In this document: positions 6,201 through 40,434 of the stretch, piece by piece
How the letters are laid out: every line of letters begins with the position of its first letter
How positions within the stretch are numbered: the stretch's first letter is position 1
From: Candidatus Falkowbacteria bacterium
GTDB taxonomy: Bacteria > Patescibacteriota > Patescibacteriia > Patescibacteriales > WJLG01
Direction of reading: 5' to 3'
Assembly (NCBI GenBank): GCA_963747695.1
Contig: CAVVFV010000008.1
Coordinates: 75,592-139,591 of the forward strand
DNA length: 64,000 nucleotides
Notes under the pieces: model-generated
Seen by the model: the letters and a program-made list of their open reading frames with translations, nothing else
Database searches by the model: none
Told to the model about the DNA's origin: nothing
Translations under genes and position numbers: made by a program

Positions 6201-9200
6201 TTGCCAACACCGCCCTCGACAGCCAGAACGAAGTCTACCTCTCCGCCACTTCCACCGATCCGGACTCTGATGCTATCACTCTGTACTATCAGCTTGCCTC
6301 GACTTCCGGAACATTCATCACCGCCACCTCGACTCCGGCCGGAGCTTGCTCTTCCGGTACGACTTATGCTTCCTGCTCTTCGCGAGTCTGGTACACTCCG
6401 GCCGCCACCAAAAAAGCCGACCTCAAATCCATTCCCGACAATGATTATCAATGGCAGGTTTTGGCCTGCGACAAGGATGGCTGTTCGAGAAATTGGCAAG
6501 CTTTTTCTGCTTCGGTTCCCAATTTCACCATCGATACGACCGCCCCGACTGCGCCGGGTAATTTGACGCTCTCCAAAAAGAACGACAGTTCGATCACGCT
6601 CCATTTCGGTTCCGCCTCGACCGAACTACATTTCTCCCAATACAAAATATTTTATAAGGTGGGCATGAACGGCGTTACCGAAAATGATTCGCTTTTAAGT
6701 TCTTCGACCGATTCGGCTCTCGGGCACATTGACTACTCCGGACATGCTACCACCACTATCACCGGCCTCAATGCCGGCACCACCTATGTCATCAATATCT
6801 GGGCTTATGATTCATTGGGTCACAAAGCTTCAGCGATTGAAACCAATGCCACCACTAAGACTTTCCCGGCTAATCCTTCCAGTCTGAATCAATATCGCGC
6901 CGATGCCTTAACCCCGATCACTAATGGCGGGTATACGAATCAGAACGAAATTAATTTTTTCGCTACTTCAACTGATGTCGATGCCGACGCCCTGACTCTT
7001 TACTATCAATTGGCCACGACGAGCGGTACTTTTATCACGGTGACTTCAACTCCGGCGAGCGCTTGTTCCAGCGGCACAGCTTACGCTTCCTGCCCTTCAA
7101 GAGTCTGGCAAACTCCGGCCGCGACCAAGAAAGCCGATCTTAAAACTATTCCCGACGCCGGGTACAAATGGCAAGTGCTCGCTTGCGATCTGGACGGCTG
7201 TTCACATAATTGGTCGACGAATTCCTCCGTACCAAATTTTACTATTGATACCACCGCACCCAGTATACCCAACGCCTTGACCCATATCGCCTCCACCACC
7301 ACTTCGATCAAGCTGCATTTTCCCACGGCCGTCACCGAAACTAATTTTTACGAATACAAAATATATTACAAAGTCGGTTCCACTACCGCTATCCACGAAT
7401 CCGATTCGCTCTGGGGTTCGACTTCGGACGCCAATCTGCTTTCCCAGACCTTTAACGGCAAATCTTCAACGACAATTACCGGTCTGACTCCGGCCACCAC
7501 ATACAGCTTTTCGATCTGGGCCTATGACCTCGCGGGCAACAAATCCAGTTCGAGTTTGGTTTGGGATCGCACTGATCGCAGTCCGACTATTGCCATCAAC
7601 TCGGCGGCCGAACGGACTGATGCAACCGGCAAGGTAGATTTCGCTTTCGCGGTCAACGATCCGGATCAAGATGACCAGGTGATGGCGCAAGCGCAATACT
7701 TTACCGATCAATACTGTCACGCGGTAGCCGCCCAAACCACGCTTGATGAAACTGATGCGGCGACCACCGCGACTCACGGCGATCCGAAAGTCCAGAACAA
7801 AAATACTTATCAGATTGGCACCACCACCGGCTGGATTTTGACTTCCGCGGGAGTTAATACGGTCAGCACCGTTTGGAATTCGCAAACTGATTTGCCGACC
7901 GGCGACAATATTTACTGTCTCAAATTGACGGTTAATGATAACCGCGGCGCCACCGCTTCGGCTACCACCACGGTCGTGATCGACAACAAAGCGCCGTCCG
8001 GATTCGGTCCGCTGACGCTGTCCAAAAAGAACGACAATTCGATAACCATGAATTTCGGTTCAACGGCCACGGAAACCCATTTCACCCAATACAAAATATA
8101 TTACAAAGCAGGGTCGAGCAATGTGAAGCAGACCGATTCGCTCTGGAGCTCGGCTAACGATCCGTCTCTTGGTTCGCAAACCTATCTGGGCAATACCACT
8201 ACGACGATCCCCGGCCTCACGGTTAACACCACTTATGTTTTTAATCTTTTCGCTTATGATAGTTACGGCCATGTGGCCTCGAGCAGCGGAGAGTTCCCGA
8301 CCGCAACCAAAAATTTTCCCGCCTTGCCTTCTCTCCTTAGCCAATACAAATCCGATGGTGTGACGGCAATCGCGCTCGGGGGACTGACTAGCCAAAACGA
8401 AATCAAATTCACCGCCACCTCCACTGATTCTGATGCTGACGCGATCACCCTCTATTATCAGCTTGCTTCGACGAGCGGTACATATATTTCTGCCACCACG
8501 ACTCCCGCCGGCGCCTGTTCGAGCGGTACGGCCTGGACCAGTTGTCCGTCCCGAGTTTGGTACACTCCCGCCGCTACCAAAAAAGCCGACCTCAAATCCA
8601 TTCCCGACAATGATTATCAATGGCAAGTTTTGGCTTGCGACAAGGACGGCTGTTCAAGAAATTGGCAAACTTTCTCGGTCTCGGTGCCCAATTTCACTAT
8701 CGATACCACCGCCCCGACTGCGCCGGGAAATCTGACGCTCTCCAAGGAAAACGATAACTCAGTCACGCTCAAATTCGGCGCCGCGACAAGCGACTCCCAT
8801 TTCGAGCAATATAAAATTTATTACAAAGTCGGCGCTTCCGGAGTCAGTGAAACCGACTTGCTCTGGAGCTCCTCTTCTGATCCGTCTCTCGGGCAGATCG
8901 CTTATTCCGGGAATTCCACCACCACTATCGGCGGGCTTATTTCGGGGACGAATTATGTCTTTAATATCTATGCCTATGATGCCGCCGGGAATAAAGCCGC
9001 GGCCGCTTTAGAGTTGACGGTTCCGGTAAAATCGTTTCCCGGCAACGCCTCCGGCTTGCAGCAATATAAAGCCGATGGGACCACCTTGATTGCTAACGGG
9101 GCGTTCATTAATCAAAATACGGTTAATCTTTCCGCGGCGGCGACCGATCCCGATTCCGATCGCACCACTCTTTATTATCAGCTGACCACCACTTCCGCGG

Positions 9201-12200
9201 CGCTAATCACCGCCACCTCCGCGCCCAGCAATGCCTGTGCCGATAGTTCGGATTATGCAAGTTGCTCGGGAAAAGTTTGGGCCAACGTGCTGACCGATTG
9301 GTACAGTTCGGCCTGGCCGTACCGCGCCAAAATCACCGTAAATAAGAATAGCGTCCGCAGCAATCAGACTGGATTCCCGGTTTACGTTGATTTGTCGCTT
9401 TTTCCTTCCGGCCACACCATCTGGACGAATATGAAAAATGGCGGCGGCGATCTGTTGGTGACGGCCGCCGACGGCGTCACTCGTCTTCCGTTGGAAGTCG
9501 TCAGCGCCAGCACCACGCCCAAAACCGGAGAAATATATTTCAAGGGCGATATCTCGGCCTCGAGTAACACTGATTTTTATCTCTATTACGGAAATTCCGC
9601 CGCAACCCAGCCGGCTTCCACGACTGCTTATGGCGCGCAGAAAGTTTGGGACAGTAATTATGTCGGCGTCTGGCATTTGGGAGAAAGGGGAGTGGTCGAA
9701 AATTCAACCGGTAAAACTGCGGCCGGAACCAGAATGGGTTCGCCGATTCGGATGGCTGGCCAGTTGGGATATGGTCAAAATATCGAAGCCAACGGCGGCG
9801 TCGGTTTCAACTTGGGAAAACTGGGCTTGGCCGACGGCACCCACAATCATCTGACCATGGAGGTTTGGGCCGAGAACAACGGCACTTGGGAAAGCACCGG
9901 ACGGATCATCAGTCACAGTTCTTCCAGCGTGATTTTCTATTCCCTGTCGCGCGCCGCTGCTAACAACAGTCTCAGGATGGTGATTGACAATGCGACTGCC
10001 GGAAATAATCTCGCCTTTTCTACCAGTACCTGGCACTATATCGCGGGAACTTATGACGCAACATTAGGTTCGCTGCGCGCGAAATTGTTTATCGATAATA
10101 CGGCTTCGACTACCGCCGCCGCTAATTCCGGACCGATTAACGACGATAGCGGCGAAGGCTTTACAACCATCGGCCGGCGTTATGACGTGACCACCCAAGA
10201 TTGGCGAGGCGATGTCGATGAAGTCCGTATTTCTTCTTCCACCCGTTCTCAAAATTGGTTGATGACAACTTATAGTAATGAAAGCAATGATTCATCTTTC
10301 TTGACCATTGCCGACGGTGAACCAATTCCGGCGGCGGACACGATGGTTAAAATATTGTCTCTGCCGGACGGCGGCTATCAATGGCAAGCGCTGGCCTGTG
10401 ACGTTGATGGCTGCGCGCGGAATTGGAAAACTTTTAATGATAGCCTTCCCAATATTGAAGTTGATATCACTCCTCCCAGCACGCCCGGCCCGCTCACTCA
10501 CATCGCGTCCACCACCACTTCGATCAAGCTGCATTTTCCCACGGCCGTCACCGAAACTAATTTTTACGAATACAAAATATATTACAAAGTCGGTTCCACT
10601 ACCGCTATCCACGAATCCGATTCGCTCTGGGGTTCGACTTCGGACGCCAATCTGCTTTCCCAGACCTTTAACGGCAAATCTTCAACGACAATTACCGGTC
10701 TGACTCCGGCCACCACATACAGCTTTTCGATCTGGGCCTATGACCTCGCGGGCAACAAATCCAGTTCGAGTTTGGTTTGGGATCGCACCGATCGTAATCC
10801 GACGCTCGCGATCAATTCCCGCGCCGAACGGATCGACGGGACAGGTTTGGTCGATCTATCTTTCGCGGTAAATGATCCGGATGCTGACGACCAGGTGATG
10901 GCCCAGGTGCAATACTTCACCGACCAGAATTGCCATTCGTCCGGCAATCAGGCATATCTCGATGAAACCGATGCTAATACTACCGCGACTCACGGCGATC
11001 CGAAAGTCCAGAACAAAAATACTTATCAGATCGGTACCACCACCGGCTGGATTTTGACTTCGGCGGGGGTTAACGCTGTCAATACGGTTTGGTTATCGCA
11101 TCATGATCTTCCCGCCGGCGATGGAACTTATTGTTTAAAATTAACGGTCAATGATAACCGCGGCGGCACTGCCAGCGCCACTTCTTCGTTAACGATTGAC
11201 AATAAAGCTCCGTTCGGTTTCGGTCCGCTTACTTTTTCGAAAAAGAACGACAATTCGATCACTCTATTTTTCGGCAATGCGGCTTCGGAAAATCACTTCT
11301 CGCCCTATAAGATTTATTACAAAATCGGCGCGGCAGGAGTGAAACAAACCGATTCGCTTTGGAGTTCGGCCAATGACGCGGCGCTCGGTTATCAAAATTA
11401 TTCCGGTCATGCCACCACCACGATTACCGGCTTGAATTCCGGCGTGACTTATGTTTTTAATCTTTTCGCTTATGATACTTACGGCAATCTGGCTTCGAGT
11501 TCGCCCGAATTCACTACCGGGACCAAAAGTTTCCCGGCCGCGCCCTCAACCCTAACCCAATATCGCGCTGACGGCGTGACGACCATCGCACCCGGCGGTT
11601 TTATCAATCAAAATGAAATCAAACTGTTTGCCACTTCCACTGACGCCGATGCCGACGCCATTACTATCTATTATCAATTAGCGACCACGAGCGGGGCTTT
11701 CCTTTCCGCGACGACCACGCCGGCTTCGGCCTGCTCTTCGGGAACAACTTACGCGGGCTGTCCGAGCCGGGTTTGGCAAACGCCGGCCGCGACTAAGATG
11801 GCCGATCTGAAAACTATTTCCGACAACGGTTACGTCTGGCAGGCATTGGCTTGCGATACTGACGGCTGCTCCCGGAACTGGACCGCTTTTAGCGCGACGA
11901 TTCCGAACCTGACAATTGATATCACACCGCCGACAATATCTTCGTTCACGATGCCGGCCGGATATAGTTCGACCACCGTTCCCGTCAGCACTTTCTCGGC
12001 CAGCGACAATATCGGCGTGACCAAATATTTGATCACCAGCACTTCCACCACGCCAAGCTTGGGCGATCCCGGCTGGTCGCCGACACCGCAAGGTTCATTT
12101 ACTTTCCCCGGCGCTTCCGGCGTCAAAACCGCTTACGCCTGGGTGAGAGATGGAGCGGGAAATATTTCTTCAAGCGTCAGCGCGACGGTTACGCTTGACG

Positions 12201-15200
12201 TTCCCCGTTATTGGTATGGCCGCGCCAGCTCGGGCAATGCTAACAATATGAACGACGGCAACAACTATAATCCGATGGGCCCGCTGCTTGCCAGCGATAA
12301 ACTGGTTTTTAATTCCGGCGCCACTTCCTCGGCTGCCACCGCCGATTTGACCGCCGGTTCGATCACCGTCAATCCGGCCTTTACCGGCAACTGGTCGATT
12401 TCGGGCCGCAATCTTATTTCCAGCAGTTCAGTGATCATCAACGGTACCGGCGGCTCGGTCAATTTGGGCAATAGCATAACCATCAGCAATCCATTGTCTA
12501 CTTTGCATATTGGAAATTCCGTTGGCACGGCCACGTTTAGCAGTTGCGCAATAACTTTCAATGGACCAGGATCGACTTTGGATATTATCAAGAGCGGCAC
12601 CATTAAATCTTTGACACTCGGCGCCAGCGCCGCGGTGACCGCCAGTTCATCGGCAACTTTCTTGTCCGCGACCGCGCCGCTGATTTTGGGCAATAATTCA
12701 ACGCTCATCATCAATGCGGGCAAGTCGTTGAATTTCAACCGTTCAACTTCGGGAGACCTCTTCTCGCTCGGCACCGGCTATACCATCACTAACAACGGCT
12801 TATTTGAATTCTGGGCTCATGATAACGGGACAGTGCTAACAGTTCCGGCTTTGACGGTTGGCGGATCCGGTGAAATAGACTTTACTGATTGGGGTACCCT
12901 TACTGCTACTTACAGTTTCACCGGGGCGCAGAATTATGGCGCCAATACTTTGTATCTGGCCACTAGTTTTAGTGACGGCCAGATTACTTATAATATCAAT
13001 AGCCAAAATATAGCTTGCGGAGCTTTAAACGCCGGCCCGCGAAATTCGCAGACAACGGGTTATGAGATAATAAATTATGGTAGCGGCAATATTTTCTGCA
13101 CCTCGTACACTGGATCCAGTTATGCGGCTACGGAAAATCTGGGCACTTCCCAATGGAGCGTAACCGGAAACTGGACGATGGGGTCGACGCATACGATTGT
13201 CGCGAGTACTTCGCTGGTCACTTTCAAAAATTCTGCCACCATCACTTCTAACGGCCAAAGTTTTTATGATTTGACGCTGGCCTCTTCTTCCAAAACTTTC
13301 ACCTTGGGCGACGCGCTTTCCGCCCACACTTTGAATCTTTCCGCAGGCACGCTTAACACCAATGCCAAGAATGTTTCCTTGAGCGGCAACATCACTTTGG
13401 CGTCGGCCGCCACCTTTACCGCCGCCGGCAGCGCTTTCACTTTCACCGGCACGCCGACCATCACCGCCAACGGCAAGAGTTTCCCGGTCAGCACCTTTAA
13501 TAATGGCGCGACTTTTGCCGACAACGTGACTTTTGCCCGGGCGATCTTTACTCCCAACAAGACTTATACTTTCACCCACGGCATTAACTTTACTTTGACT
13601 TCCTACACGGCAGGGGACTGGAACGGCACGGTCGGCAATCCGGTAACTTTGCAATCGGATTCTTCGGGCCAAGCTTGGAATTTTATCAATCCGGCCGGGA
13701 TGGCCGTCTCGCATGTTGCCGTCAAAGATTCGACGGCGAGCAATGATATCAATGCCGGAAACGGAACCAACGTCGACAATGGCGGCAATAATGTTCACTG
13801 GATCTTCCCGCCGACCGCGCTTAATCCTTTAACCCGGATCGCTTCCACGACGACGGCGATCAAGCTTGGTTTTCCCGCGCCGGTCGTGGAAACTAATTTT
13901 TCGCAGTATAAGATTTTTTACCGCCTCGGGTCGACGACGCCGATCCATGAAACCGATTCGCTCTGGAGTTCCAGCTCCGATCCCAACTTGGGCTCGCTTA
14001 ATTTCAATGGCAAATCTTCAACCACCATCACCGGTCTTGCCGGCGGGACTGTTTATAGTTTCTCCATCTGGGCCTATGACAAGCTCGGCGATAAAGCCAG
14101 TTCATCTCTCATCTGGGATCGCACCGACCGCGCGCCCAATGTTATGGCCTTCAATTCGGCGGCGGAACGAATCGATGCTTCGGGGAAAGTGGATATCAGC
14201 TTCAACGCCAATGATCCGGATCTGGATAACTTGTCGGCCAAAGTCGAATACGTGGCCCGACCAGGAGCCAGTTGCGATTTTGCCGCGCCTCTCGTTCCCA
14301 CCTTGGATGAGACCGACGCCAATACCACGGCTCACTGGGGCGATCCCAAAGTGCAGAATAAAAATACTTATCAGATCGGTACGACTACCGGTTGGATCTT
14401 GTCGTCTTCGACACCTAACACGGTGAATTTTGTCTGGCTCTCCCGGAGTAATCTGCCGGCTGGCGACGGGGTTTATTGTCTGCGTTTGACGGCTAATGAT
14501 AATCGCGGCGGGACGCTATCCGCGACCACTTCTTTGATCATTGATAACGCCGCGCCGACTAATCCCGGTCCGCTCATCTTGAACAAGCACAGCAACACGA
14601 GCATCACCGCCAATCTTAACGCCTCATCATCGGAAAGCAATTTTGTCCAGTATAAGATTTTTTATAAAGCGGGACCGAGCGGCGTTAAGCAAACGGATAT
14701 TTTGTTCGGCTCGTCAACCGCGCCGGGCGATTCAGTGCTCGGACAAATCGATTTTAGCAAACATACCACTACCACTTTCACCGGTCTCACTCCGGGAACT
14801 AATTATGTTTTCAATATCTGGGCTTATGATCAATATGGCAATAAAGCGAGCGGCTCGCCCGAATTCTCCGCGACTACTAAAAGTTACCCGTCGGCCGCCC
14901 AAGCGATGGTCCAGTATCACGGTGACGGTACAACTGTCGTGAATAACGGCAATTGGGTTATCGTCAACGATATGAATTTTTTTGCCACTTCCACCGACGC
15001 CGATTCTGACGCGATCACTCTCTACTATCAATTAGCCACCACTTCGGGAAGTTTTCTTACCGCCACCTCGGCGCCGGCTAATGCTTGTTCATCGGGAACG
15101 TCTTACGCTTCCTGTCCCGCCAAAGTTTGGTACACTCCGTCCTCAATCAAAAAAGTCGATATCAAGGATATTCCCGACGGAGATTATCAATGGCAAGCGC

Positions 15201-18200
15201 TCGCTTGCGATGCTGACGGCTGCGCCAGAACCTGGAAGGTATTCGATTCCTCGGTTCCCAACTTTAAAATTGATACCGCTCCGCCGACTCCGCCTAATCC
15301 GCTGTTAAGGATAGCTTCGACGACTGATACGATTAAGTTAGGTTTGCCGGGTCCGATCTTGATCGACAATTTTTCCCAGTTTAAAATTTTCTACCGGATT
15401 GGCTCGACGACTCCGATCCGCGAAACCGATACGCTCTGGGGCTCAAGTTCAGATCCTAATTTGGGCATCGACAATTTCAACGGTAAGTCATCAACAACTA
15501 TTACCGGATTGAATCCGGCAACCGTATATAGTTTTGCCATCTGGGCCTATGATCTGGCCGGCCACAAAGTCAGCTCGACTTTGATGTGGGAGCGCACTGA
15601 CCGCAACCCCGTTTTGATCATCAATTCCGCGGCCGAGCGCGTTGATTCATCAGGCAACGCCGATCTTTCTTTTGCCGCCGATGATCCTGATCAAGAGAGC
15701 GAGCTGATGGTCCGAGTTCAATATTTTACTGACCAATATTGCCATTCAGCGGCCAATCAAACTTATCTTGATGAAACCGACGCCAACACCACCGCGACTT
15801 ACGGCGATCCGAAAGTTCAGAATAAAAATACTTACCAGATCGGCACCAGCACCGGCTGGATCTATAACACTTCCGGCGCCAACACGGTCAATACGGTTTG
15901 GCTCACTCGTAATGATCTGCCGGTCGGGGATGGCACTTATTGTCTTAAACTGACGATTAACGATAATCGCGGCGCTACCGGGGAGGCGACCACTTCGATT
16001 ATCATCGATAATGTTAATCCGACCACGCCGGGCAGCTTAACTTTGAATAAAAAGAATGACGGTTCGGTCACGGTGAATTTCGGTTCGTCGACCGTCGAAA
16101 CCAACTTCGCCCCTTATAAAATATATTATAAAGTCGGCGCCAGCGGGGTGAAGCAGACTGATTCGTCTTGGACGGCGGCGGATGATCCGGCGTTGGGAGC
16201 GCAAGATTTTTCCGGGCACTCGACGACTACTATCACCAGTCTTGATTCCGGCATCAGCTATACTTTTAATATTTTCGCTTACGATTATTATGGCAACGTG
16301 GCTTCGGGCACGGCTGAACTGGCGACGACGACCAAGCACTTTCCGGCTAACCCTTCCGGCGCGTACCAGTACCGCTCCGACGGTGTAACTTTGATTGCTA
16401 ACGGAACCTTCACCACCGAGGATGAAGTCAAGCTGACGGCAACTTCCACCGATGCCGATTCCGATTCAATCACCCTCTATTACCAATTGGCCACCACTTC
16501 GGGAACATTTCTGACCGCCACGACCGCCCCGGCCAATGCCTGCTCATCCGGCACGGCTTATGCCGCGTGCCCGGCGCGAGTTTGGTATGCTCCGGCGCCG
16601 ATCAAGCAAGCCGATTTGAAGAATATTCCCGATAATGATTACAAATGGCAGGTGCTCGCTTGCGACTCCGACGGCTGCGCGAGAAATTGGACCGCGTTCA
16701 ACGGCTCCATTCCCAACTTCCGGATCGGCGCGGTTCCGCCGTTCACTCCTGATCCGTTGACCAGGATCGCTTCCACCTCGGTTTCCATCAAACTCGGTTT
16801 CCCGGCGCCGGTCACCGTTTCCACCTTCGCGCAGTATAAGATCTATTACCGGGTCGGCTCGACCACGACGATTCATGAAACCGATTCGCTCTGGAGCTCA
16901 AGCTCTGATCCGAATCTGGGCAGCCATACTTTCAACGGCAAATCTTCCACTACCATTACCGGATTGAATCCGGCCACGGTCTACAGTTTCTCGCTCTGGG
17001 CCTATGACCAAGCCGGCAATAAATCCAGCTCGACTCTGGTCTGGGATCGCACCGACCGCAATCCGACGATCGATATCAATAACCGGGCGGAAGAAACCAA
17101 TGGCACGGGCAAGGTCGATCTCTCTTTCTCGGTCAATGATCCGGATGCCGACGACCAGGTGATGGCGCAGGTTCAATATTTCACCGACCAAAATTGCCAT
17201 TCATCCGGCAACCAAACCTATCTCGATGAAACCGACGCCAATACCACCGCCACTTATGGTGATCCCAAAGTGCAGAACAAGAATACTTATCAGATCGGCA
17301 CTTCGACCGGTTGGATCATCACTTCCTCGGGATCGAATGCGGTCAATACGATCTGGCTATCCAAAAATGATCTGCCCGTCGGGGACGGAACCTATTGCCT
17401 CAAATTCTCGGTTAATGATAACCGCGGCGGTCTTGCTTTTGCCACTTCCTCGCTTATCATCGATAATAAAGCTCCGGCCAATTTCGGTCCGCTGACTTTG
17501 TCCAAGAAAAACGATAATTCAATCACGGTCAATTTTAATTCTCCGGCCGAGGAATCTAATTTCTCTCAATATAAGATTTATTATAAAGCGGGCGGCTCGG
17601 GCGTAAAACAGACCGATTTGCTTTTCGGCTCTTCTTCGGATTCAGCTCTTGGCCAGCTCGATTATTCCGGCCACGCCACTACCACCATCACCGGCCTCAA
17701 CGTCGCCACCGCCTATGTCTTCAATCTTTTTGCTTATGACGCTTACGGCAACCTGGCTTCGAGCACTCCGGAATTGAATACTTCGACTAAATCATTCCCA
17801 GCGATCCCTTCCGGTCTTACCCAATATCGCGCCGACGGAGTTACCACTATTCTCAATGGCACCTTCATCACCCAAAATGAGGTTAATCTTTTCGCCACCA
17901 GCACTGATACTGATTCTGACCCAATCACTCTTTATTACCAATTGGCCACCACCAGCGGTTCAGATCTTACCGTCACCTCCACGCCGGTGAATGCTTGCGC
18001 CTCAGGTACAGCTTATGATTCCTGTCCGTCCCGAGTTTGGCAGACGCCGGCCGCGACCAAAAAAGTTGATCTTAAAACTTTGCCCGATCTCGATTATAAA
18101 TGGCAAGTGCTCGCTTGCGACGCTGACGGCTGTTCAAGAAATTGGCAATCGTTTAATGTGTCTGTTCCCAACTTCCGGATCGGCGCGGTCGCGCCAAGCC

Positions 18201-21200
18201 AGCCCGATCCGCTAACCAGACTGGCCTCGACTACGGTTTCAATCAAACTCGGTTTCCCCACGCCGGTAACAGCTTCCACCTTTCGTCAGTATAAGATTTA
18301 CTACCGGCTCGGTTCGACGACGTTGATTCACGAAACCGATACGCTTTGGGGTTCAAGTTCTGATCCGAATTTAAGCAGTATTATTTTTAATGGCAAATCC
18401 TCGACCACGATCACCGGGCTTACTTCGGGCACGGTCTACAGTTTCTCACTTTGGGCTTATGATCTGGCTGGCAATAAATCCAGTTCGACTTTGGTTTGGG
18501 ATCGCACCGACCGCAACCCGACGCTAGCTATCAATTCGGTGGCTGAACAGATCGACGGCTCAGGCAAGGTTGATATTTCTTTCGCGGCAAATGATCCGGA
18601 TCTTGATGACCTTGTGATGGCGCGAGCGCAATATTTCACCGATCAGAATTGCCATTCAGCCGGCAATCAAGCTGAGATTGATGAAACTGACGCCAACACT
18701 ACCGCGACTTACGGCGATCCGAAAGTGCAGGATAAAAATACTTATCAGATCGGCACTACGACCGGCTGGATCCTCACTTCCTCGGGCGCTAATACGATTG
18801 ATACGGTTTGGCTCTCCAAAACCGATCTTCCCGCTGGCGATGGAACCTATTGCCTGCAGTTGGCGGTCAACGATAATCGTGACGGCCTTGCTATCGCTAC
18901 CACCTCATTTATCATCGACAACCAAGCCCCGACCAATTTCGGCCCGTTGACATTCAGTAAGAAAAACGACACTTCGATTACAGTCAATCTCGGTTCGGCG
19001 GCCTCGGAAAATCATTTCCAAGCTTATAAGATCTATTACAAGATCGGTACTTCGGACGTTAAACAAACGGATTCGGTTTTTGATTCGACTAATGATTCGG
19101 ATTTGGGCTATCTTGATTTTTCAAATGCGGCTACTACCACGATCAGCAATCTTGATTCCGGCACCCCCTATGTTTTCAATCTATTCGCCTACGATCTTTA
19201 CGGCAACGTGGCTTCTGGCACCCCCGAATTTTCAACGACGACCAAAGCATTCCCGGCAGCGCCTTCGAGCCTGGATCAATTCGAAGCCGACGGCGTGACG
19301 CCGATCACCAACAAGGCAATCATTGTCGAGAATGAGGTCAAACTCTTTGCCACCTCCACCGATGCCGACAACGATCCGATCACTCTCTATTACCAGTTAG
19401 CTACTTCTAGCGGAATATTCTTGACGGTTACCACCACTCCGGCCGCGGCCTGCTCATCGGGCACGGCTTATGCCGCCTGTCCTTCCCGAATCTGGTCGGC
19501 GACCGCCGCCACTAAAGAAGTCGATATCACCGCGATTCCTGACGGCGATTTCAAGTGGCAAGTATTAGCCTGCGACGCCGATGGCTGTTCGAGGAATTGG
19601 CTGGCGTTCAATGCCTCGACTCCCAACTTCCGCATCGGCATGGCTGCGCCCTCCGTTCCTGATCCGTTAATACGCCTGGCTTCCACCACGGTTTCCATCA
19701 AGCTCGGTTTCCCTTCGCCGATAACCGCTTCCACCTTCAGCCAATACCGGATTTATTACCGCCTCGGTTCGACGACGCCGATCCACGAAACTGATCAGCT
19801 CTGGAGCTCGAGCTCCGACCCGAATCTGGGTGATATTAATTTTAACGGCAAATCTTCAACAACTATCACCGGCCTCACGCCGGGGACGGTTTACAGCTTC
19901 TCGCTTTGGGCCTACGATTTGTCCGGCCGCAAAACCAGTTCTACCTTGATGTGGGATAGAACTGATCGCAATCCGACGCTGGCGATAAATTCTCTTGCCG
20001 AAAAAGTAAATGGTACGGGCAGGGTCGATCTGGCTTTCGCGGTCAATGATCCGGATCAGGATGACGAGGTCATGGCGCGGGTCCAATATTTTGCCGACCA
20101 GAATTGTCATTCGACCGGCAACCAGACTTATCTTGATGAAACCGATTCGGCCACTACGGCCACTTATGGCGATCCGAAAGTACAAAATAAAAATACTTAT
20201 CAGATCGGCACTTCGACCGGCTGGATCTTGACTTCATCAGGCGTCAACACGGTCAAGACGATTTGGCTTTCCTCTGACGATCTGCCTGCCGGCGACGGTA
20301 CTTACTGCGTTGAATTGACGGTCAACGATAACCGCGGCGCGCAAGCCGTGGCCACTACTTCGGTCGCGATCGACAACGTTGCTCCGACGCGGCCGGGAAA
20401 TTTATCACTATCCAAGAAGAATGATAATTCGGTGACGCTCGAATTCGGTTCGGCCACGGTGGAAAATCATTTTAAAGAATATCGCATCTACTATAAAGAG
20501 GGGACAAGCGGCGTCAAAGATACTGATTCACTCTGGAGTTCCTCCTCCGATCCGCTGGCTTTGGGTTATATCGATTATTCCGGGCATGGCACCACGACCG
20601 TTACCGGTCTTAATCCGGGGACGACTTATGTTTTCAATATTTTCGCCTACGATACGACAGGCAATGTTGCCGCGGCTACGGCGGAATTCACTACCAATAC
20701 CAAATCATTCCCGGCAATCCCTTCCGGCCTTGAGCAATATCGCGCCGACGGCACAACCATAATCTCCCTTGGTTCAATTATCAATCAAAATGAGCTTAAT
20801 CTTTTCTCCACTTCCACTGACGCTGATTCTGATTCAATCACTCTCTATTATCAATTGGCCTCGACTTCCGGTTCATACCTCACTGCCACTTCCGCTCCGG
20901 CCAATGCCTGCTCTTCGGGCACAGCTTGGGACAGCTGTCCCGCGAGAATTTGGTATGCTACCGCGATTACTAAAAAAGTCGACATCAAAACCGTCCCCGA
21001 CAATGATTACCAGTGGCAAGTTTTGGCCTGCGATGTTGACGGCTGCTCGCGAAGCTGGAAAATTTTCTCTGCCTCGGTTCCTAATTTCGCCATCGATACC
21101 ACGCCGCCTTCCACGCCTAATTCTTTAACCCGCCTCGCTTCTTCCACAGATTCCATTAAGTTCGGTTTACCCGCCCCGGTTACGGAAATCCATTTCGCGC

Positions 21201-24200
21201 AGTATAAGATCTATTACCGGGTCGGCTCGACCACGACGATTCATGAAACCGATTCGCTCTGGAGCTCAAGCTCTGATCCGAATCTGGGCAGCCATACTTT
21301 CAACGGCAAATCTTCCACTACCATTACCGGATTGAATCCGGCCACGGTCTACAGTTTCTCGCTCTGGGCCTATGACCAAGCCGGCAATAAATCCAGCTCG
21401 ACTCTGGTCTGGGATCGCACCGACCGCAATCCGACGATCGATATCAATAACCGGGCGGAAGAAACCAATGGCACGGGCAAGGTCGATCTCTCTTTCTCGG
21501 TCAATGATCCGGATGCCGACGACCAGGTGATGGCGCAGGTTCAATATTTCACCGACCAAAATTGCCATTCATCCGGCAACCAAACCTATCTCGATGAAAC
21601 CGACGCCAATACCACCGCCACTTATGGTGATCCCAAAGTGCAGAACAAGAATACTTATCAGATCGGCACTTCGACCGGTTGGATCATCACTTCCTCGGGA
21701 TCGAATGCGGTCAATACGATCTGGCTATCCAAAAATGATCTGCCCGTCGGGGACGGAACCTATTGCCTCAAATTCTCGGTTAATGATAACCGCGGCGGTC
21801 TTGCTTTTGCCACTTCCTCGCTTATCATCGATAATAAAGCTCCGGCCAATTTCGGTCCGCTGACTTTGTCCAAGAAAAACGATAATTCAATCACGGTCAA
21901 TTTTAATTCTCCGGCCGAGGAATCTAATTTCTCTCAATATAAGATTTATTATAAAGCGGGCGGCTCGGGCGTAAAACAGACCGATTTGCTTTTCGGCTCT
22001 TCTTCGGATTCAGCTCTTGGCCAGCTCGATTATTCCGGCCACGCCACTACCACCATCACCGGCCTCAACGTCGCCACCGCCTATGTCTTCAATCTTTTTG
22101 CTTATGACGCTTACGGCAACCTGGCTTCGAGCACTCCGGAATTGAATACTTCGACTAAATCATTCCCAGCGATCCCTTCCGGTCTTACCCAATATCGCGC
22201 CGACGGAATTACGGTCATACCCAATGGCGCTTTTGTCAATCAAAATGAAGTCAATCTTTTCGCCACCAGCACTGATGCCGATTCCGATCCTATCACTCTT
22301 TATTATCAGCTAGCGACGACCAGCGGTTCGTATCTTACCGCCACCACGACTCCGGCCGCTTCTTGCGCGAGCGGCACGGCTTATGGTTCTTGTGCCGCGA
22401 AAATTTGGCGCAACGATTCCCCGGCTGACATTAAAGACATCCCCGATGGCAGCTATAAATGGCAGGTGTTAGCCTGCGATGCTGACAGCTGCGCGCGAAA
22501 TTGGCAGGCCTTTGACGCCGGTACGCCAAACTTTACGGATGACAACACCGCCCCGACCGTCCCCGGTAATCTATCCTTAAGCAAAAAAACCGATACTTCA
22601 ATCGATCTCTATTTTGGCTCGTCTACCGATGAAACTAACTTTAGTCAATACAAAATTTTCTACAAAGTCGGCTCCTCGGGCGTGACCGAGAGCGATCTGC
22701 TCTTTGGTTCGTCGTCCGATGCGGCGTTAGGTTCGCAAACGTATCTTTCCCATGCCACCACTTCTATTTCCGGTCTCAATGCCGGCACGCAATATGTTTT
22801 CAAAATTTTTGCTTATGATTCGGCGGGAAATAAATCCAGCTCTTCTGAATTCACCGCGGCGACCAAAAGTTTCCCGGCGGCCGCGGACCACCTGGATCAG
22901 TACCGCGCCGATGGAGTTACCGAAATTGCCAATCATTCCTTGTTGAACATCGACGAAGTCAAACTTTTTTCGAGCACCACGGACGCCGACAGTGATCCAA
23001 TTACGATTTATTATCAGTTGGTTACTTCTTTGCCGTCTTTCTTGACGGCTACCTCTGTTCCGAATAATGCCTGTTCTTCCGGCACGATTTATTCCGCCTG
23101 TACCAGCAAGGTTTGGTCAGCCGCCAACGACGTGCAAGTTGATCTCGTTAGCATTCCTTATGGAACTTATGAATGGCAGGCCTTGGCTTGCGATAACGAT
23201 GGTTGTTCCCGAACCTGGACAAAATTCAATGCCGTTACTCCCAACTTCATCCTGGCCAGCTCCAACCTTTCCACGCCCGGTCCTTTGACCGCAATCGCTT
23301 CCAGTTCCGCTTCGATCAAACTTGGCTTCCCGGCTCCGGTCACGGGCGTCGGTTTCGTGCAATATAAAATCTTTTATCATCTCGGCTCGACGACGCCAGT
23401 TCACGAAACCGATTCGCTCTGGGGTTCCAGCTCTGATCCTAATTTGGGAGACATCGGTTTCAACGGCAAATCTTCGACGACCGTCACCGGCCTAACTGCC
23501 GGCACGACTTACAGCTTTTCGATCTGGGCTTACGACAATTACGGCGGTAAAACCAGTTCGACGATGATCTGGGTGCGTACTGATCGCTTACCGACCATTA
23601 TTTTCAATTCCGCCGCTGAACGAGTCAACGGTACCGGCGTGGTGGACGTTTCCGTGGTGGTCAACGATCCGGACAAAGATAATCAAGTGATGGCGAAAGT
23701 GGAATACTCGGCCGGGTCGAGTTGTGATTTCTCCAGTCCCGCCAAAGCGACGCTTGACGAGCGGTCCGGTCATTCAAGCGCCAGCTTCGGCATTCCGGTC
23801 GTCAGGAATAAAAATGCTTATCAGGTCGGCACCAGCACCGGCTGGATCCTCACTTCCTTCGGGCAGAATACCGTTAATTTCGAATGGCCGAGTAAAATCG
23901 ACCTGCCAACCGGCGATAATAGTTATTGTCTGCGGGTGACGGTTAATGATAATCGCGGCGGTACCGCGTCGGCTACCAGAATTTTGACGATTGATAATGC
24001 TCCGCCGGCATCGTTTGGGCCCCTGACCTTGGATTTGAAAACTTTGAATTCCGTGACTCTTTTCTTCGGCTCGGCCGCCACGGAAAACAATTTCCGCCAG
24101 TACAAGATTTATTATAAAGCGGGGACCAGCGGCGTTACGGAAAAAAATATCTTGTTCGGCTCTTCTTCGGATCCGGCGCTCAATGACCAGAATTATCTGG

Positions 24201-27200
24201 GCCACGCCACTACCACGATCAGCGGTTTGACTTCCAATGTCAATTACGTCTTTAATGTCTGGGCTTATGATCTTTTCGGCAACAAGTCTTCGAGCTCGCC
24301 GGAATTTACGACCAAGACTCCCATCGGGCCGACCGGTTCGATCAATTCCGCCGCCGAAGCGACCGATGGTTCCGATCGAATCAATATTTCCATCACCGCC
24401 AATGATCCCGAGGGCTTGGATACCCGCGCCAAACTGGAATATTTCACCAATCCCGGCTGCACCGGCACCGCGCATAAACCTACCCTTGACGAAGATCCTT
24501 CGTCGATTACCGCCTCGACCGGCACGCCGGCGATCCAAAATAAAAATACTTACCAGATCGGCACCAGCACCGGCTATATCAGCACGGACCGCGGCGCCAA
24601 TACGGTGAACTTTGTCTGGCTCTCGGGAGCCGATCTCTCCGGCAGCGAAGGAACTTATTGCCTGCGCCTGACGGTTAATAACGGATCTTACGATTCGCTA
24701 TCGACCACCACTCCTTTATATATTGATGACAAAGCGCCGACCGGCTTGGGGAATCTGACCGTCAACAAAAAAGTCGGCACCAGCGCAATCTTGAATTACG
24801 GTTCGGCGGCCACGGAAGCCAACTTCTCCCGCTATCGGATTTTCTATAAGATCGGCACTCCGCCGGTGGTGGAAACCGATAACGAACAGATCGATGCGAA
24901 CTTGAATCTTCAGAATTATAATAATAAAGCCACTACCACTATTTCCGGATTGGCCGCGGGCAATTGGTACGCGGCCAATATCTGGGCTTATGACGATTAC
25001 GGCAATAAGGCCAGCGCCACGCCGGTCAGTTTCAAGATTAATCAGAAACCGGACGATCCCAGCGATTTGCAGCAAGCCGAAAGCGACGGTACGCCGATTC
25101 CTGTCGGTACGGTAATCAACGGCTCGACGGTAAAACTGCGGGCCAATGTCGTGGATACCGATTCGACCAGCACGACTTTTTATTTCCAATTGCTTGGTAA
25201 TGGCGCCGATTATTCCACCGATACCACGGTGCCGGGATCAGCCTGCGCCGACAATACCGCCTTCGGTTCCTGCGCGAACAATATCTGGTCGGTCGCCACA
25301 TCCTCGAGTCCGTCCGATTGGTATAATTCCGGCTGGCACTATCGCCGTCTCGTCACTGTCGATCACTCCCAAGTGGCCGGCGATCTTTCCGGTTTCCCGG
25401 TTCTGATCTCCGCGCCAGCCGATGCCGACCTGGCGGCCAAGGCCCGCGCCGATGGACGCGATATCATCTTCACCTCAGCTGACGGCCGGACGCTGCTCGA
25501 CTTTTCCAAAGAAAATTATAATCCCACCACCGGCGAATACGAATTCTGGGTCAAGTCCGATCTTTCTGCTACGGCGGACACCTTCCTTTATATGTATTAC
25601 GGCAATCCCGCCGTGGCGACCGATCTGGTTTCGACACAAACCTGGAACAGCGATTACGCGGCGGTTTGGCATTTGGCGGAAACGGGGACTGGATCGCGCG
25701 CCGACGCGACGGAAAACGGAAATAATGCGGCGGCCGTTAATTTTGACGGCAGCGAAAAAGATCGGCCGGGCATAATTGACGGAGCCGATGATTTTAATAG
25801 CGCCGATAAATTTTTACAAGCGCCGGATTCGGCCAGTTTATCGATCACCGGCGGTTTGACCGTTTCCGGTTGGATCAATCCGGACACTGTCGCCGTCGAC
25901 AGTTTGCAGGCCGGCGGTTATCCGCGCTATCAATTCGTGGGAATGAAATGGCACGCGGACGGCGGCGCGGATTGTACTCCGGACGGGAATTTCAATCCGG
26001 CGATGATCAATCCTTATGCCGGCGCCACCTATGGCAGCGATGCCTGGACTAACGGTTCGTCCTGGAAAGTTTATGATACGAGTTTGTCCTCGGTTTATTA
26101 TCAGTCTGACCAATATTCGGTCGACTTGAATAAACTTTGGGGCAACACGGCGGCCGATTCCGAAGCTTACCTTGGCGCCTATGTTTATTCGCCGGATGAT
26201 CGTACGGTCGATATTTCCCGCGGTTCGGATGACGGCAGCGAAATGTGGGTGAACGGCCATTTGGTCGCGGCTGATTGCCAGAATCATTTGTTCGCCGCCG
26301 ACGCTTTAGTCAGCTCGGTTAATTTAAAACAAGGCTGGAATACCATCGTGGTCAGAGTCGCGAACGGCAGCGGCGATTGGGTGGGCGAGTGGAGGATTTC
26401 GGCCAATGCGAGCGGATTATCAACTTTGGCTAATCCGAAAATAATCGTCGACAAACAAAATTATCAAGTGTCACAGAAGGGGAGCGATCTCTCGGTGTTT
26501 TACGGCACCACTAGTCTCGATACCATCATCGCTACCAACAGCTGGCAGTATTTTGTCATGAAGGGCGACAATTATCATTTGGATCTTTTATTGAACGGCC
26601 AAAACCGCGGCAGCCAAACTTTCTCGGTGGTTTCTCCCGCCACCGACCAACCGTTGCGATTAGGGTACGGCTTTGACGGCCGCTTGGATGAGATCAATAT
26701 CGAGAATCAGGTAGCCAGCGTTCCTTGGGTAACCACGGCTTATCGTAATCAGAACGATCCGGGTTCATTCGCGAGCGTCGGTTCCCCGGAAGGAAGAACC
26801 GGCATGGGAGCGCAAATATCCGTCAACAGTTTGCCCGATTCCGCGGCTGGTTACAAATGGCAAGTGATGGTTTGCGACGAGGAGAATGCCTGCTCGGGAT
26901 GGACTAAGTTCAACGATGCCGCGCCCCATTTTCTCGTTTCAGGAAACGGTCCGTCCGTACCCGGAGCGCTCACCTTGCACAGCAAAACTTCGCATAGCTT
27001 GACCTTGAATTTCGGCGCGCCGAGCAATACCGGTTTCTTCAAGCAATATAAAATATTCTATAAAGCCGGATCGAGCGGCGTAACCGAAGGTGATTCGCTC
27101 TGGGGCTCAAGTTCTGACGCTAACCTGGCCTACATTGATTATAACGGCGCGGGCTCAACCACTATCACTAATTTGTCGGCCGACACCCAATATGTTTTCA

Positions 27201-30200
27201 ATATCTGGGCCTATGATTCGGCCGGACGCCGCGCCAGCTCAAGGACCGAATTGACCGCGACCACCAACGCTCCCCCGACAGCGAGTTTTTCGGCCGCCGC
27301 GGAAAAAACCGACGGTTCGGGCCGCGTTCATCTTTCCATCATCGCTAATGATGTTAATCAGGATAATTTAAAAGCTAAATTGGAATTCTTCGCCAATCCC
27401 CGCTGCGTGGGCGCGCCTTTCCCGACCACTTTGGATGAAACTGATTATACCGCTACCTCCACTTATGGCGATGCCAAAATCAGCAATAGCAACGCTTATC
27501 AGATCGGTAATCCGAGCGGCTGGATCATTACCGCCGCCGGAGCCAACACGGTCAATTTCGATTGGTTATCGACGATCGATCTGCCCGCTGGTAACAGCGT
27601 CTATTGTCTGCGTTTGACCGCCAACGACGGGATCGAAGACCAAACAATACCGGCCACCACTTCTTTGATAATCGATAATGTCAAACCGACTCAACCCGGC
27701 GCCTTAACTTTGGGCAAAAGAGGATCGGCTTATCTGGAACTTCTCTTTGGCGCGCCGACGCAGGAAACCAATTTCCAGAGATATCGCATCTTCTATAAAC
27801 AGGGGACGGGCGTAACTGAGCACGACTCGGAAATAACCGATACTAATCTCGCCTACATTAATTATAATGGCGCGGCCACGACCACCGCGACCGGTTTGAC
27901 CGGCGGTAAACCATATAGTTTTAAGATTTTCGCTTACGACGACTTTGGCCACGAATCCAGTTCGACTGAAACCACTTATTCCACCGATCATTTGCCGACC
28001 GGGTTCTTCAATTCGGCCGCCGAAGAAACCAACGGCAACGGCGTAGTTGATATTTCTCTGACCGCCGCCGACCCTGACGGTGATCCTGCGTCGGCCCAGC
28101 TGCAATATTTTGCCGATGCCGCCTGCCATGGTACGCCGCTCGACCCGACTTTGAATAATGCCAGTTCCACGATCGCGGCGACTTTCGGCCATCCGGACAT
28201 CAATAATAGTGAGACTTATCAACTGGGCGATGCCTCCCGCATCATTACCGTTACCGGACCGAATACGGTCAACTTTACCTGGCTCTCCGGACTGGATCTG
28301 CCGGCCGGCGACGGAATTTATTGCCTGCGGCTCGTGGTCAATGACGGAAAAAATGATCAAGGAGCAGCGGCCACTACCAGCTTAGTGATCGATAATGCCG
28401 CTCCGACCGTTCCCGGCAATCTTTCAGTTTCCCGCGTCAACGGCGATTATGTCTTCTTAAAATTCGGCGCGGCGGCGACCGATTCGCATTTCCGCGAGTA
28501 CAAGATATTTTATCAAGTCGGTACCGACACGGTCACCGAGGCCGATTTGGCGATGACTAAATCCCTCGATTATAATTTGGGATTTGCGGATTATAATGGC
28601 CGGGCGACCACTGCCGTGGCCAATCTGAACGCGCAGGCGGAATATTCGTTTAACATTTGGGCTTACGATAATTACGGCAATAAATCCGCGGCATTGCAGC
28701 AGGTTTCCACTACAACTTATAGCAGTTCGGGCGCAACTTGGCGCGAAGCTGAAGATACGGTTGATCCGACTAATATCCTTTATCTGGGCAAAGAAAAACC
28801 GGTCCGGGTGAGAATCAGCGTTGCCAACCTCGGCGATTGGTCCGCTACCGATCAATATAAGATCCAATACGCGCCGAAGGTAGACAGCTGCGCCAATGTG
28901 GTTTCTTGGCTTGATGTGCCGACCACGACGGCCACCGACGATTTTACCATGATCGACTCCAGTTATTTCTTCAATGGCGAGCCGACCGTGCAGCGTTTAA
29001 ATAATACCGAAGGGTATAATTTCGTGCCGGGCAGTCTGATCAAGGCCTTGAGCAACCAAAGCGCCTCGACGACTTTAGGAACCAATGAGTATACGGAATT
29101 GGAATATGCTTTCCAGGCGACCGCCAACGCCACGGCCGGAGCGACTTATTGCTTCCGCGTCTTGAAGAACGGCCAGGTGCTCGACGCTTACACGCGCTAT
29201 CCGGAACTGACTTTGTCTCCGCCGCCTGAGAGTTCCTTCTCAAGCGCCCAGGAAAAAGGCGACGGCTCGAATGCAGTCCGGGTGGCGTTGAATGTTTCTC
29301 ATCCGGCCGGATACCCGACCCAAGTCAAATTGGAATATGCCGCCAATTCTTCCTGCGATTTCAGTTCGCCGCTCAAGCCGACTTTGAATACTGATCCGGT
29401 TTCGGTCTCGGCGACTTACGATCATCCCGATCTTAATAATAATGAAACTTATCAAATCGGTTCCAGCACGGGCAATATGATTATTACTTCCCTTGGGACG
29501 AATACCGTGGCTTTCGATTGGCCGACCCGCGATGATTTTACCGGCGTGGATCAAACTTATTGTTTGCGGGCCACCGCCTACGATGGTTATGATGATCAAG
29601 CCGTCCCGGCGACGACCACGGTAGTGATCGATCAGGTCAAGCCGACCAATCCCGGTGATTTGGCTACCACCAGCAAAACCACCGGTTCAGTCACCTTGGC
29701 TTTTGGTTCAGCTTCCTTTGATACGCACTTCAAGGAGTATCGTATATATTATAAGGTAGGCAGCTCGAGCGTTACCGAAAATGATTCGCTCTGGGGTTCC
29801 TCTTCCGATCCTAATCTCGGCTACATTAATTATAATGGCGCGGCCACCACGACCGTGACCGGCTTATTGCCTAACAAACAATATGTTTTCCGCATTTGGG
29901 CTTATGATGAATACGGCAACAAATCAAGTTCTTCGGATGAAATTTCCGTCTATCTCTTCAGTACCAAGCGGTCGGGCGGTCCGTGGCGCTGGTATCAGGA
30001 TCAATATGACGAAACTCCGCAAATTCCGCTGGCTGCCGAAAACGTGACGCCGAACAATATCACTGATGATCAAATCCTTAAATTAAGAATGGATTTCCAG
30101 GAAATCCAAGGACTTGACGCGCTCAATACCAAGATCAGGTTGCAGTATTCCACTTATTCCGATTTTTCGGCGGACGTGAATTGGGTAGGGGAGATCGGTT

Positions 30201-31157: not shown

Positions 31158-31286
31158 AATAAGCAGAGAAGAGAAAATATTTTTAGATCAAAATTAAAAT
31201 ACTATAACCGGAGGGAAATAGGAGACTACTTAAAGTTTTGATAAATAATTATTTTGCCAAGGACGATTCGTTTGACTAGAAAAAAT

Positions 31287-32351
31287 ATGAAAACCCAAAA
31301 ACAAAAATTGTTCATCGCGCTGCTGATGCTGACCATGCTGCTCGTTTACGGTTCCGTTCCCTCGGTCACCGAAGCTACCTCGATGAAAAGCGTCAAGGAT
31401 ACGATTTCCAGTTCTGATGTTTCCAAAGCTAATGTCACGCACACGATCATTGCCTCAACCACGCAGGCGATTACTGCCAATGGTTATTTTGAAATAATTT
31501 TTCCCGCAGCCTTTACCAATGTCGCGGCTGGCAATCTAACTTGTCCGAATTCGGGAACGCCGGGCGGAGCCGGCAACACTTTGACTTGCGGATACACGGG
31601 CGGTTTGGCAGCCGGACTTTATACGATTACTTTGACCGGCACCACCAATCCTTCGTCGGTCGGCAGCCAGATGATCACGGTCAATACCAAACAAAGCGGC
31701 GGAGCGATGATCGAACATTCCACTTTGCGGGTGGCGATCGTTAATAGCGTGTCAGTCACGGCTACCGTTCAAGCATCCCTGACTTTTACAATCTCCGGCA
31801 TTGGCACGACAACCCCCGAGTATGTTAACGGCGTTCTCTGCAATGCTTCCTCGACTTACAATACCTTGCCTTATGGAATTCTGACTCCGGGAGTAGAGAA
31901 GACCATCTGCCAAAGAATGAACGTTACCACTAACGCCGATTATGGCTATTCAGTTACGGTAGTCCAAGATCATAATCTGTTAGCCAGCAATGGCGCCGAT
32001 ATTGATTCTTTCGATAATGGCTTGCCCGCTTCCACAACTCCTCTGGCTTGGGCATCGCCATCGGCTGTCTTAGGCAATGCCCATACTTACGGTCATTTCG
32101 GTTTAACGAGCGGTGATACTACTTTAAGTGATGGTAATCCTTTCATTGGCTCGCTTTATAAAGGTTTTTGGCTCAACAGAAACACCTCGACTGAAATCCC
32201 GATTGAAGTTATGTGGCACAATGGCGTTTCCGACGGTCTGACCAAAGGGATCGGCTCATCGACCGTGGCTTATTCGGTCGAAATCAGCGCCTTGCAAGAA
32301 GCCGGTGATTATTCCAATACGCTGACTTACGTCTGCACCCCGACTTACTAA
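31287..32351 (+). CDS. Secreted protein (354 aa from ATG 31287; the track ORF starts at TTG 31254) with a C-terminal WxL-like domain shared with the giant protein
   Basis: Signal peptide MKTQKQKLFIALLMLTMLLVYGSVPSVTEA. The C-terminal ~200 aa (31730..32348) are homologous to 30461..30997. TAA stop is followed by a terminator. Confidence 0.85.
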   Translation: MKTQKQKLFIALLMLTMLLVYGSVPSVTEATSMKSVKDTISSSDVSKANVTHTIIASTTQAITANGYFEIIFPAAFTNVAAGNLTCPNSGTPGGAGNTLTCGYTGGLAAGLYTITLTGTTNPSSVGSQMITVNTKQSGGAMIEHSTLRVAIVNSVSVTATVQASLTFTISGIGTTTPEYVNGVLCNASSTYNTLPYGILTPGVEKTICQRMNVTTNADYGYSVTVVQDHNLLASNGADIDSFDNGLPASTTPLAWASPSAVLGNAHTYGHFGLTSGDTTLSDGNPFIGSLYKGFWLNRNTSTEIPIEVMWHNGVSDGLTKGIGSSTVAYSVEISALQEAGDYSNTLTYVCTPTY

Positions 32352-33070: not shown

Positions 33071-33241
33071 GAGGATCAGCCGCTGTTGTGGTTTATGTTC
33101 AATGGAAAAAAATTATCTGTCATAATCGGGTTTATTATCAAGCGAAGCGAGCGAAATGATCTCGCGCCTCGCCGGGATCGTTTCCGAGCGAGCGCAGAGA
33201 AAATACTCCGTCCGCTTGCGGCGGAGACACCTGCCAGAAAG

Positions 33242-34360: not shown

Positions 34361-34380
34361 CCGTTAAATTTTTCGCCTAA

Positions 34381-35388: not shown

Positions 35389-35441
35389 ATTAGGAATAAT
35401 TATTGGTTTTGTAAAAAATTTATTTAAACTAGAACAATCTG

Positions 35442-40190: not shown

Positions 40191-40194
40191 CTCT

Positions 40195-40434
40195 ATGAAA
40201 AGGTATAAAGAAGTTTTAATTCCATTGTTTTTTTTATTACCGTTCTTACTTCCTTTGCTCACCTTGTCCCTTGACGCCTTTTTTCTCATCGCCTATTTTA
40301 TTTTAATATTTCCATTATTATTATTTAAGCTGAGTGACAAGAAACGCCGCTTATTTTATTTTATTCTATTCTATTTAATTTTATTGATTATCGTTGTGAC
40401 AAAAATGCTTAGCGGTAATTTAATTTCTTTTTGA
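40195..40434 (+). CDS. Small hydrophobic membrane protein (79 aa)
   Basis: ATG at 40195. The product has 2-3 predicted TM stretches (LIPLFFLLPFLLPLLTLSL, FFLIAYFILIFPLLLF, FYFILFYLILLIIVV). The frame stays open in very AT-rich DNA, where stop codons should be frequent. Confidence 0.5.
   Translation: MKRYKEVLIPLFFLLPFLLPLLTLSLDAFFLIAYFILIFPLLLFKLSDKKRRLFYFILFYLILLIIVVTKMLSGNLISF

Follow-up and report, generated by a model that had tools for sequence, protein, structure and literature searches.

A giant gene with an exact internal repeat

The window analysed here is a 64,000-nt stretch of a Candidatus Falkowbacteria genome (assembly GCA_963747695.1, contig CAVVFV010000008.1, positions 75,592 to 139,591 of the forward strand), and all coordinates given below are positions in this window. 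Near its start lies a giant open reading frame (ORF; 284..31000, plus strand), which begins with TTG and encodes 10,238 amino acids according to the list of ORFs and their translations. This frame carries two copies of a 1,014-nt tract that are identical at every position, although the supermodules that contain them belong to a strongly diverged tandem array. The origin of this identity, and its possible consequence for the length of the encoded protein, are the subject of this analysis.

The translation of the giant ORF has a hydrophobic signal or anchor segment at its N-terminus. Pfam domains in the protein include arrays of FN3 and Ig-like domains as well as several modules of DUF2341 and LamG (Laminin_G_3), with an E-value of 3.7e-55 for fn3 in the segment 15377..22660. 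This domain content makes a giant cell-surface fibre the most likely role of the protein. The 30.7-kb frame is unbroken, and the window is without Ns. The last ~170 amino acids (30197..30997) are homologous to the C-terminal domain of the 365-aa product of the next gene (31254..32351; 34% identity, E=6e-21), and both proteins terminate in ...GDYS..(L/I)(T/V)Y(V/I)..PTY. The domain common to the two proteins may bind the cell wall or a partner.

A regular tandem run of supermodules occupies 13802..22552 of the plus strand, with successive periods of 1473, 1455, 1455, 1455 and 1458 nt. The end coordinate of this run is approximate because the last unit, which holds the second copy of the tract, has a shortened fourth domain. 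The order of domains in a supermodule is an FN3 domain (FN3-A), an Ig-like domain, another FN3 domain (FN3-B) and a beta domain that contains cysteine. An AlphaFold2 model of one supermodule has four all-beta domains at approximately residues 8-107, 110-245, 253-352 and 358-480; given a mean pLDDT (predicted local distance difference test) of 61, only the domain layout of this model was used. Tandem Repeats Finder reports no array, because the periods exceed 500 nt.

Direct comparison of 16826..17839 (copy 1, amino acids 5515-5852) with 21194..22207 (copy 2, amino acids 6971-7308), both on the plus strand, gave 0 mismatches over 1,014 nt. The exact run is maximal, being bounded by C versus T on the 16825 side and by G versus A on the 17840 side. 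Copy 1 corresponds to residues 33-370 of the 485-aa supermodule that starts at 16730, and copy 2 lies in the supermodule three units downstream. Both copies open on codon position 1 and close on codon position 3 of the giant frame, and their offset of 4,368 nt is a multiple of 3. An earlier note, made from the sequence, had described a perfect 1,014-bp duplication at this offset, and that description is borne out. However, the note had read the offset as 3 x 1,456 nt; the actual spacings are 1455, 1455 and 1458 nt, so that only their sum equals 4,368 and 1,456 is a mean. The spacer between the copies (17840..21193, plus strand, 3,354 nt) consists of the remainder of the supermodule designated 16826, the whole of those designated 18281 and 19736, and the beginning of that designated 21194. 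Within the whole window, the next longest exact direct repeats measure 281, 146 and 68 nt.

Identity of the tract and divergence of the array

As a comparison set, 11 homologous supermodule segments were aligned, and percentages were taken in the same alignment columns. The supermodule proteins are 63-73% identical to the first sequence of the alignment, and adjacent supermodules are 59-78% identical in nucleotides and 57-78% in amino acids. Inside the columns of the tract, all other pairs of supermodules are likewise 59-78% identical in nucleotides, and the nearest relatives of the tract besides its twin copy reach 74%. The earlier note had pointed to many synonymous and non-synonymous differences between neighbouring supermodules, in agreement with the Nei-Gojobori estimates for the other module pairs: synonymous divergence (dS) is saturated at 1.1-2.8, non-synonymous divergence (dN) is 0.16-0.35, and dN/dS is 0.11-0.23. 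In contrast, the tract pair has 0 differences over ~239 synonymous and 775 non-synonymous sites, which places the 95% upper bound of its dS at ~0.013. Given that none of the 239 synonymous sites differs while the other pairs are saturated, the identity is recent rather than conserved. On these distances, the tract pair is estimated to be at least ~90-fold younger than the youngest other pair.

The same contrast appears when polymorphic columns are permuted in the manner of GENECONV (500 permutations). The tract pair has 707 concordant polymorphic sites in one run. Runs under the null averaged 27 sites and peaked at 59, and 0 of the 500 permutations reached 707. An identity run far above the expectation from divergence is an operational mark of gene conversion, and the tract pair shows such a run.

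Gene conversion would also leave flanks at background divergence, with a history separate from that of the tract, and this is what was found. When the two copies are compared, identity is 66% over the 630 nt of left flank and 63% over the 450 nt of right flank, which is ordinary background for the array, and in these flanks the two copy-bearing modules are not each other's closest relatives. In a 60-nt sliding comparison, identity jumps at the left edge from 62-67% to 100% within one window. At the right edge, background is regained within ~150 nt by way of a shoulder of 82-85%, compared with a mean of 64-75% for the other pairs. At the 4,368-nt offset, identity just upstream of the tract is 64-70%, and past copy 2 (after 22,400) the architecture of the modules differs. 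Repeat number and register are unaltered, as expected for conversion: the copies stand in register in supermodules of 1455 and 1458 nt, with frame and module order intact.

The limits of the tract do not follow the limits of domains. The left end of the tract lies at the third strand predicted for FN3-A (QYKIYY), and the right end in the opening strand of domain 4 (QYRADG); the tract is thus no domain cassette, and cuts through both FN3-A and domain 4. Its edges match the outer borders of two islands of locally conserved DNA, formed by the QYKIYY and QYRADG codons, and coincide with falls in conservation between modules. Given that the endpoints lie at conserved DNA islands and off the domain borders, they point to an event driven by DNA homology and not to domain shuffling.

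Smaller patches of raised identity occur elsewhere in the giant gene. They were found by self-BLAST of the window with strict scoring, since lenient scoring fused everything. One patch joins 7286..7587 with 10502..10803 (plus strand, offset 3,216 nt), where 302 nt contain 4 mismatches and a 281-nt exact core; it sits at the homologous FN3-A position and, in the alignment of modules, overlaps the left portion of the main tract. Another joins 5777..6113 with 7946..8282 (plus strand, offset 2,169 nt), with 339 nt at 88% identity and an exact core of 146 nt (5909..6054 = 8078..8223). Besides the tract, three significant fragments were detected in other module pairs of the giant gene, with runs of 163, 113 and 34 concordant polymorphic sites; the first two of these runs belong to the two patches just described, and neither was reached in 500 permutations. 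The gene therefore holds a graded series: 100% over 1,014 nt, 98.7% over 302 nt, 95.7% over 92 nt, 91% over 194 nt and 88% over 339 nt. Such a series is what repeated conversion events of differing age would leave, in which case the 1,014-nt tract would be both the youngest and the longest.

Patches also join the DUF2341/LamG parts of this gene with those of a second giant gene downstream. The pair 4076..4408 and 55463..55795 (333 nt, 88%) and the pair 4763..4920 and 56150..56307 share an offset of 51,387 nt and are 84-88% identical in nucleotides. These patches suggest exchange or recent common origin between genes, beyond a single gene.

Origin of the identical copies

We consider it probable that the identical stretches result from very recent non-reciprocal copying between non-adjacent supermodules of one gene. 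In this scenario, at least 1,014 nt of one supermodule would have served as the template that overwrote the homologous part of a supermodule three units away, leaving the number and register of the modules unaltered. The route could have been ectopic gene conversion through the repair of a break or gap, or an equivalent template switch during replication, and the event would be recent also when counted in generations. The giant gene as a whole may be evolving by patchy concerted evolution, with the tract as the latest of a series. The earlier note had proposed either a very recent segmental duplication or gene conversion, with an assembly artefact as the alternative. Gene conversion is favoured by the confinement of identity to 1,014 nt, the background flanks, the preserved register and the smaller patches, whereas duplication of a block is contradicted by the 64-70% identity just upstream.

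Duplication of a block would explain why the offset is exactly three supermodules and in frame. If three supermodules (4,368 nt) had been duplicated in tandem by unequal crossing-over, however, 4,368 nt of identity would be predicted, while identity drops to 62-67% a few bases beyond the left edge and returns to background within ~150 nt on the right. Duplication of the whole block is ruled out by the background identity at that offset outside the tract. A version in which only 1,014 nt are still identical is extremely improbable, as the remainder would have had no time to diverge with 239 synonymous sites unchanged, and the module past copy 2 is built differently. Equally hard to credit is an old duplication kept identical by selection or by an overlapping functional element, or a mobile cassette inserted twice. 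The giant gene is under purifying selection overall (dN/dS 0.11-0.23), but selection at the level of the protein cannot freeze 239 synonymous sites while other module pairs are saturated. Neither copy has an ORF of at least 150 amino acids on the opposite strand, and the promoter-like and terminator-like matches are plain consensus matches within coding sequence. The tract is homologous over its full length and in frame to the other modules (59-78%), which is not what an inserted cassette would look like. A mobile element was rejected on the same grounds, the tract being an in-frame homologue of every other module, with no terminal inverted repeats or target-site duplications at its edges. No transposase, reverse transcriptase or recombinase had a Pfam match in the scanned ORFs and segments of the window. 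Self-BLAST of the window with lenient scoring gave one inverted high-scoring pair, whose position was not located. Diversity-generating retroelements have a reverse transcriptase close by, together with repeats of ~100-150 nt whose differences fall at adenines. Such an element was discarded here, given that the copies are identical over 1,014 nt and that the scanned window ORFs include no reverse transcriptase.

An artefact of assembly or polishing is unlikely, but it is the alternative that deserves most attention. One copy would then be truly diverged in the organism, and its apparent identity would come from a wrong k-mer path, from a gap filled with a paralogous sequence, or from short-read polishing that homogenised copies of ~97-99% identity. 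Giant genes rich in repeats are hard to assemble, with fragmentation attributed to unresolvable repeats (10.1101/2023.11.21.568195), and in a related metagenome-assembled genome (MAG) the homologous giant genes are cut by contig ends. The tract is bordered by conserved motifs, where a k-mer graph could switch paths too. As the second giant gene has a frameshift at a G4A7 run, the assembly may hold at least one error, and no independent sequence of the same species was found in the searched collections. However, a switch of path requires common k-mers at both edges, and the longest exact match among paralogues is 17 nt at the right edge, with mostly 11-35 nt at the left. Matches between the tandem modules at the left edge are short throughout, the 35-nt maximum being found among the more similar N-terminal modules; in length, these edge matches fall below the k-mers usually used in assembly or are similar to them. 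The assembler would have to make two wrong choices, use one edge a second time and leave the true segment unplaced. If all four junctions are real, the repeat forms a simple loop, A-R-X-R-D, for which a single full traversal is possible. An artefact would also leave the other graded patches of the giant gene (88-99%) unexplained, and the 30.7-kb ORF is intact and has no Ns. Even a mixture of two strains, with the tract at one position in each, would still need biological copying.

Several observations weigh against recent copying, or against our account of it. The tract is known from a single assembly, and an exact repeat of 1 kb is unbridgeable by ordinary short-read pairs. Polishing of two near-identical copies with short reads could have exaggerated the perfect identity. 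In Bacillus subtilis, transformation falls logarithmically with divergence up to 15% (PMC6382021). RecA-type exchange would be very inefficient here, because the overwritten segment, if it resembled the present modules, was 22-41% diverged. We found no usable literature on mismatch repair in Candidate Phyla Radiation (CPR) bacteria. Donor and recipient are not separable, given that distances to paralogues (the nearest neighbours of the tract and of its flanks) and to orthologues (those at corresponding positions in a relative) are too alike, at ~65-75%. The shoulders of raised identity beside the tract are weak only, although they hint at an earlier exchange between the same two modules. The homologous giant genes of relatives contain no exact internal repeats longer than 44 nt; this is uninformative with respect to long repeats, because these short-read contigs end inside the genes.

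Fibre length, known systems and genomic neighbourhood

As it stands, the tract pair forms a perfect direct repeat of 1,014 bp whose copies are separated by 3,354 bp. If the copies underwent homologous recombination, the spacer and one copy would be lost or gained, that is, 4,368 nt, three supermodules or 1,456 amino acids, without leaving the frame. The earlier note had suggested that the tract could support the in-frame loss or gain of 4.4 kb, and hence length variation of the fibre. Its arithmetic is correct, and both simulated recombinants are open frames free of stops, of 8,782 amino acids for the deletion and 11,694 for the duplication. Both junctions of a deletion allele, A|R and R|D, are already present in the full-length gene, so that such an allele would bring no new junction and would be undetectable by short reads.

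If the tract is real in the organism, it would represent a conversion event caught near time zero, in a surface protein of 10,238 amino acids from an uncultivated bacterium that is probably episymbiotic, and would indicate that patchy concerted evolution shapes giant genes of this repetitive kind. It would also predict a concrete polymorphism in the population, the loss or gain of three supermodules (1,456 amino acids), which would alter the length of the fibre. For the present, the length and domain count of this gene should not be quoted before the assembly is checked at the tract. Intragenic recombination in repetitive genes for surface proteins is well known, and this is a new instance in a little-studied lineage whose general significance is modest.

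Gene conversion and concerted evolution between bacterial paralogues are familiar from tufA and tufB of Salmonella, from rRNA operons, from pilS to pilE in Neisseria and from the MgPa repeats of Mycoplasma genitalium. The giant gene resembles these systems in having a tract of identity within diverged flanks and a recurrent mosaic of patches. It differs from them in that the partners are repeat units of one gene, there are no silent cassettes, and the partners are ~25-40% diverged, far more than the copies of tuf or rRNA genes.

In Periscope proteins (SasG, Aap, Rib, Sgo_0707, Esp and CdrA), high identity among the repeats at the level of DNA has been proposed as the substrate for recombination within the gene, which alters repeat number and with it the length and reach of the protein (Whelan et al. 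2021, PMC8201768). Like them, the protein described here is predicted to lie at the surface and is built from long arrays of folded domains of Ig-like and FN3 type, and it has the signal or anchor segment and the stalk of folded repeats of such a surface protein, its surface location being predicted. Unlike Periscope proteins, whose adjacent repeats are all highly identical, it has a diverged array with one identical pair of segments that are three units apart, a tract that cuts through domains, and a record of one genome. It is thus not a Periscope protein by definition. A bolder proposal, which we regard as improbable, is that exchange between supermodules of ~60-78% identity is frequent and perhaps selected, which would imply unusually permissive recombination (homeologous or primed by microhomology) in this reduced genome. 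Kilobase repeats would then act as stepwise, in-frame length or antigenic switches of a host-contact fibre, through a "self-priming" Periscope mechanism within a diverged array.

In the cagY gene of Helicobacter pylori, recombination between direct repeats always gives in-frame deletions or duplications (Aras et al. 2003, PMC2194252). The giant gene is similar in that it is a large, repeat-bearing gene for a predicted surface protein and both of its recombinants are open frames. However, the repeats of cagY are short and numerous and its variants were shown within hosts, whereas the giant gene has a single 1-kb pair and is represented by one genome sequence. Work on giant genes from uncultivated bacteria raises the concern that repeats break up or mislead assemblies and that long reads are required (West-Roberts et al., 10.1101/2023.11.21.568195). 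The gene studied here shares with those a product of more than 10,000 amino acids, richness in repeats, a predicted extracellular location and a genome of metagenome type. Those genes are mostly from Omnitrophota and encode HEAT, TPR and dockerin/thrombospondin domains, in contrast to the FN3/Ig-like domains with DUF2341-LamG in this relative of Patescibacteria.

Searches of public data found distant relatives of the locus. Exact-protein look-ups with three neighbouring genes gave nothing on record, and a 30-mer taken at the tract's left edge had 0 exact matches in collections of genomes, metagenomes and viral contigs. A protein search with the tract gave 5 matches, the best at 60% identity. 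Profile-based searches of the locus returned only distant relatives, at 29-75% amino acid identity, in the Patescibacteria MAG STD1_31 and some JGI contigs; syntenic DNA of STD1_31 and one JGI contig is 73-83% identical in nucleotides. Among public genomes the nearest is "MAG: Patescibacteria group bacterium isolate STD1_31" (JAQUPS01; SPAdes, ~7x coverage), one contig of which is syntenic with 59584..64000 of the window at 76-83% nucleotide identity. On this basis the source organism most likely belongs to the Patescibacteria (CPR). In the STD1_31 genome, contigs JAQUPS010000004.1 (1..11752) and JAQUPS010000012.1 (1..16196) both end inside homologues of the giant FN3 genes.

Downstream of the giant gene, the window encodes the 365-aa protein, three membrane-anchored proteins, an LCAT-like lipase, an FGE-sulfatase-like protein, dockerin and cohesin proteins, Hsp20 and the second giant gene with FN3, DUF2341 and LamG domains. 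This second gene (~4,150 amino acids) is divided into two ORFs (48583..53652 and 53756..61120) by a frameshift at a GGGGAAAAAAA run, with the break at ~53620..53652. Frame 0 closes with "...NSAGEKKRRFGKS*", and the next frame resumes a normal Ig-like module with "...GKKRDASGKVNFNFTVNDPDGD...". The frameshift could reflect slipped-strand phase variation, a pseudogene or a sequencing error in a homopolymer.

The three membrane-anchored proteins are encoded consecutively at 33086..36521 and are alike in size and layout (424, 335 and 359 amino acids). Two of them have weak, below-cutoff matches to the peptidoglycan-binding domain of WxL-interacting proteins (PF06030), and in predicted content the locus is similar to the WxL-type clusters of surface proteins known from Gram-positive bacteria. 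Further along, G+C content falls to 0.31 over 40001..42000, compared with ~0.45-0.52 around it. Small, very hydrophobic ORFs in this region (40464..40766, 41097..41441 and 41732..42313 on the minus strand) have no Pfam match, and the region may be a foreign or fast-evolving island. The Hsp20 gene is flanked by genes for a dockerin-domain protein (44044..45924) and for a protein with cohesin and Big_13 domains (46551..48314). Together, the genes at 44044..48314 may specify a cohesin-dockerin surface assembly in a CPR-like genome.

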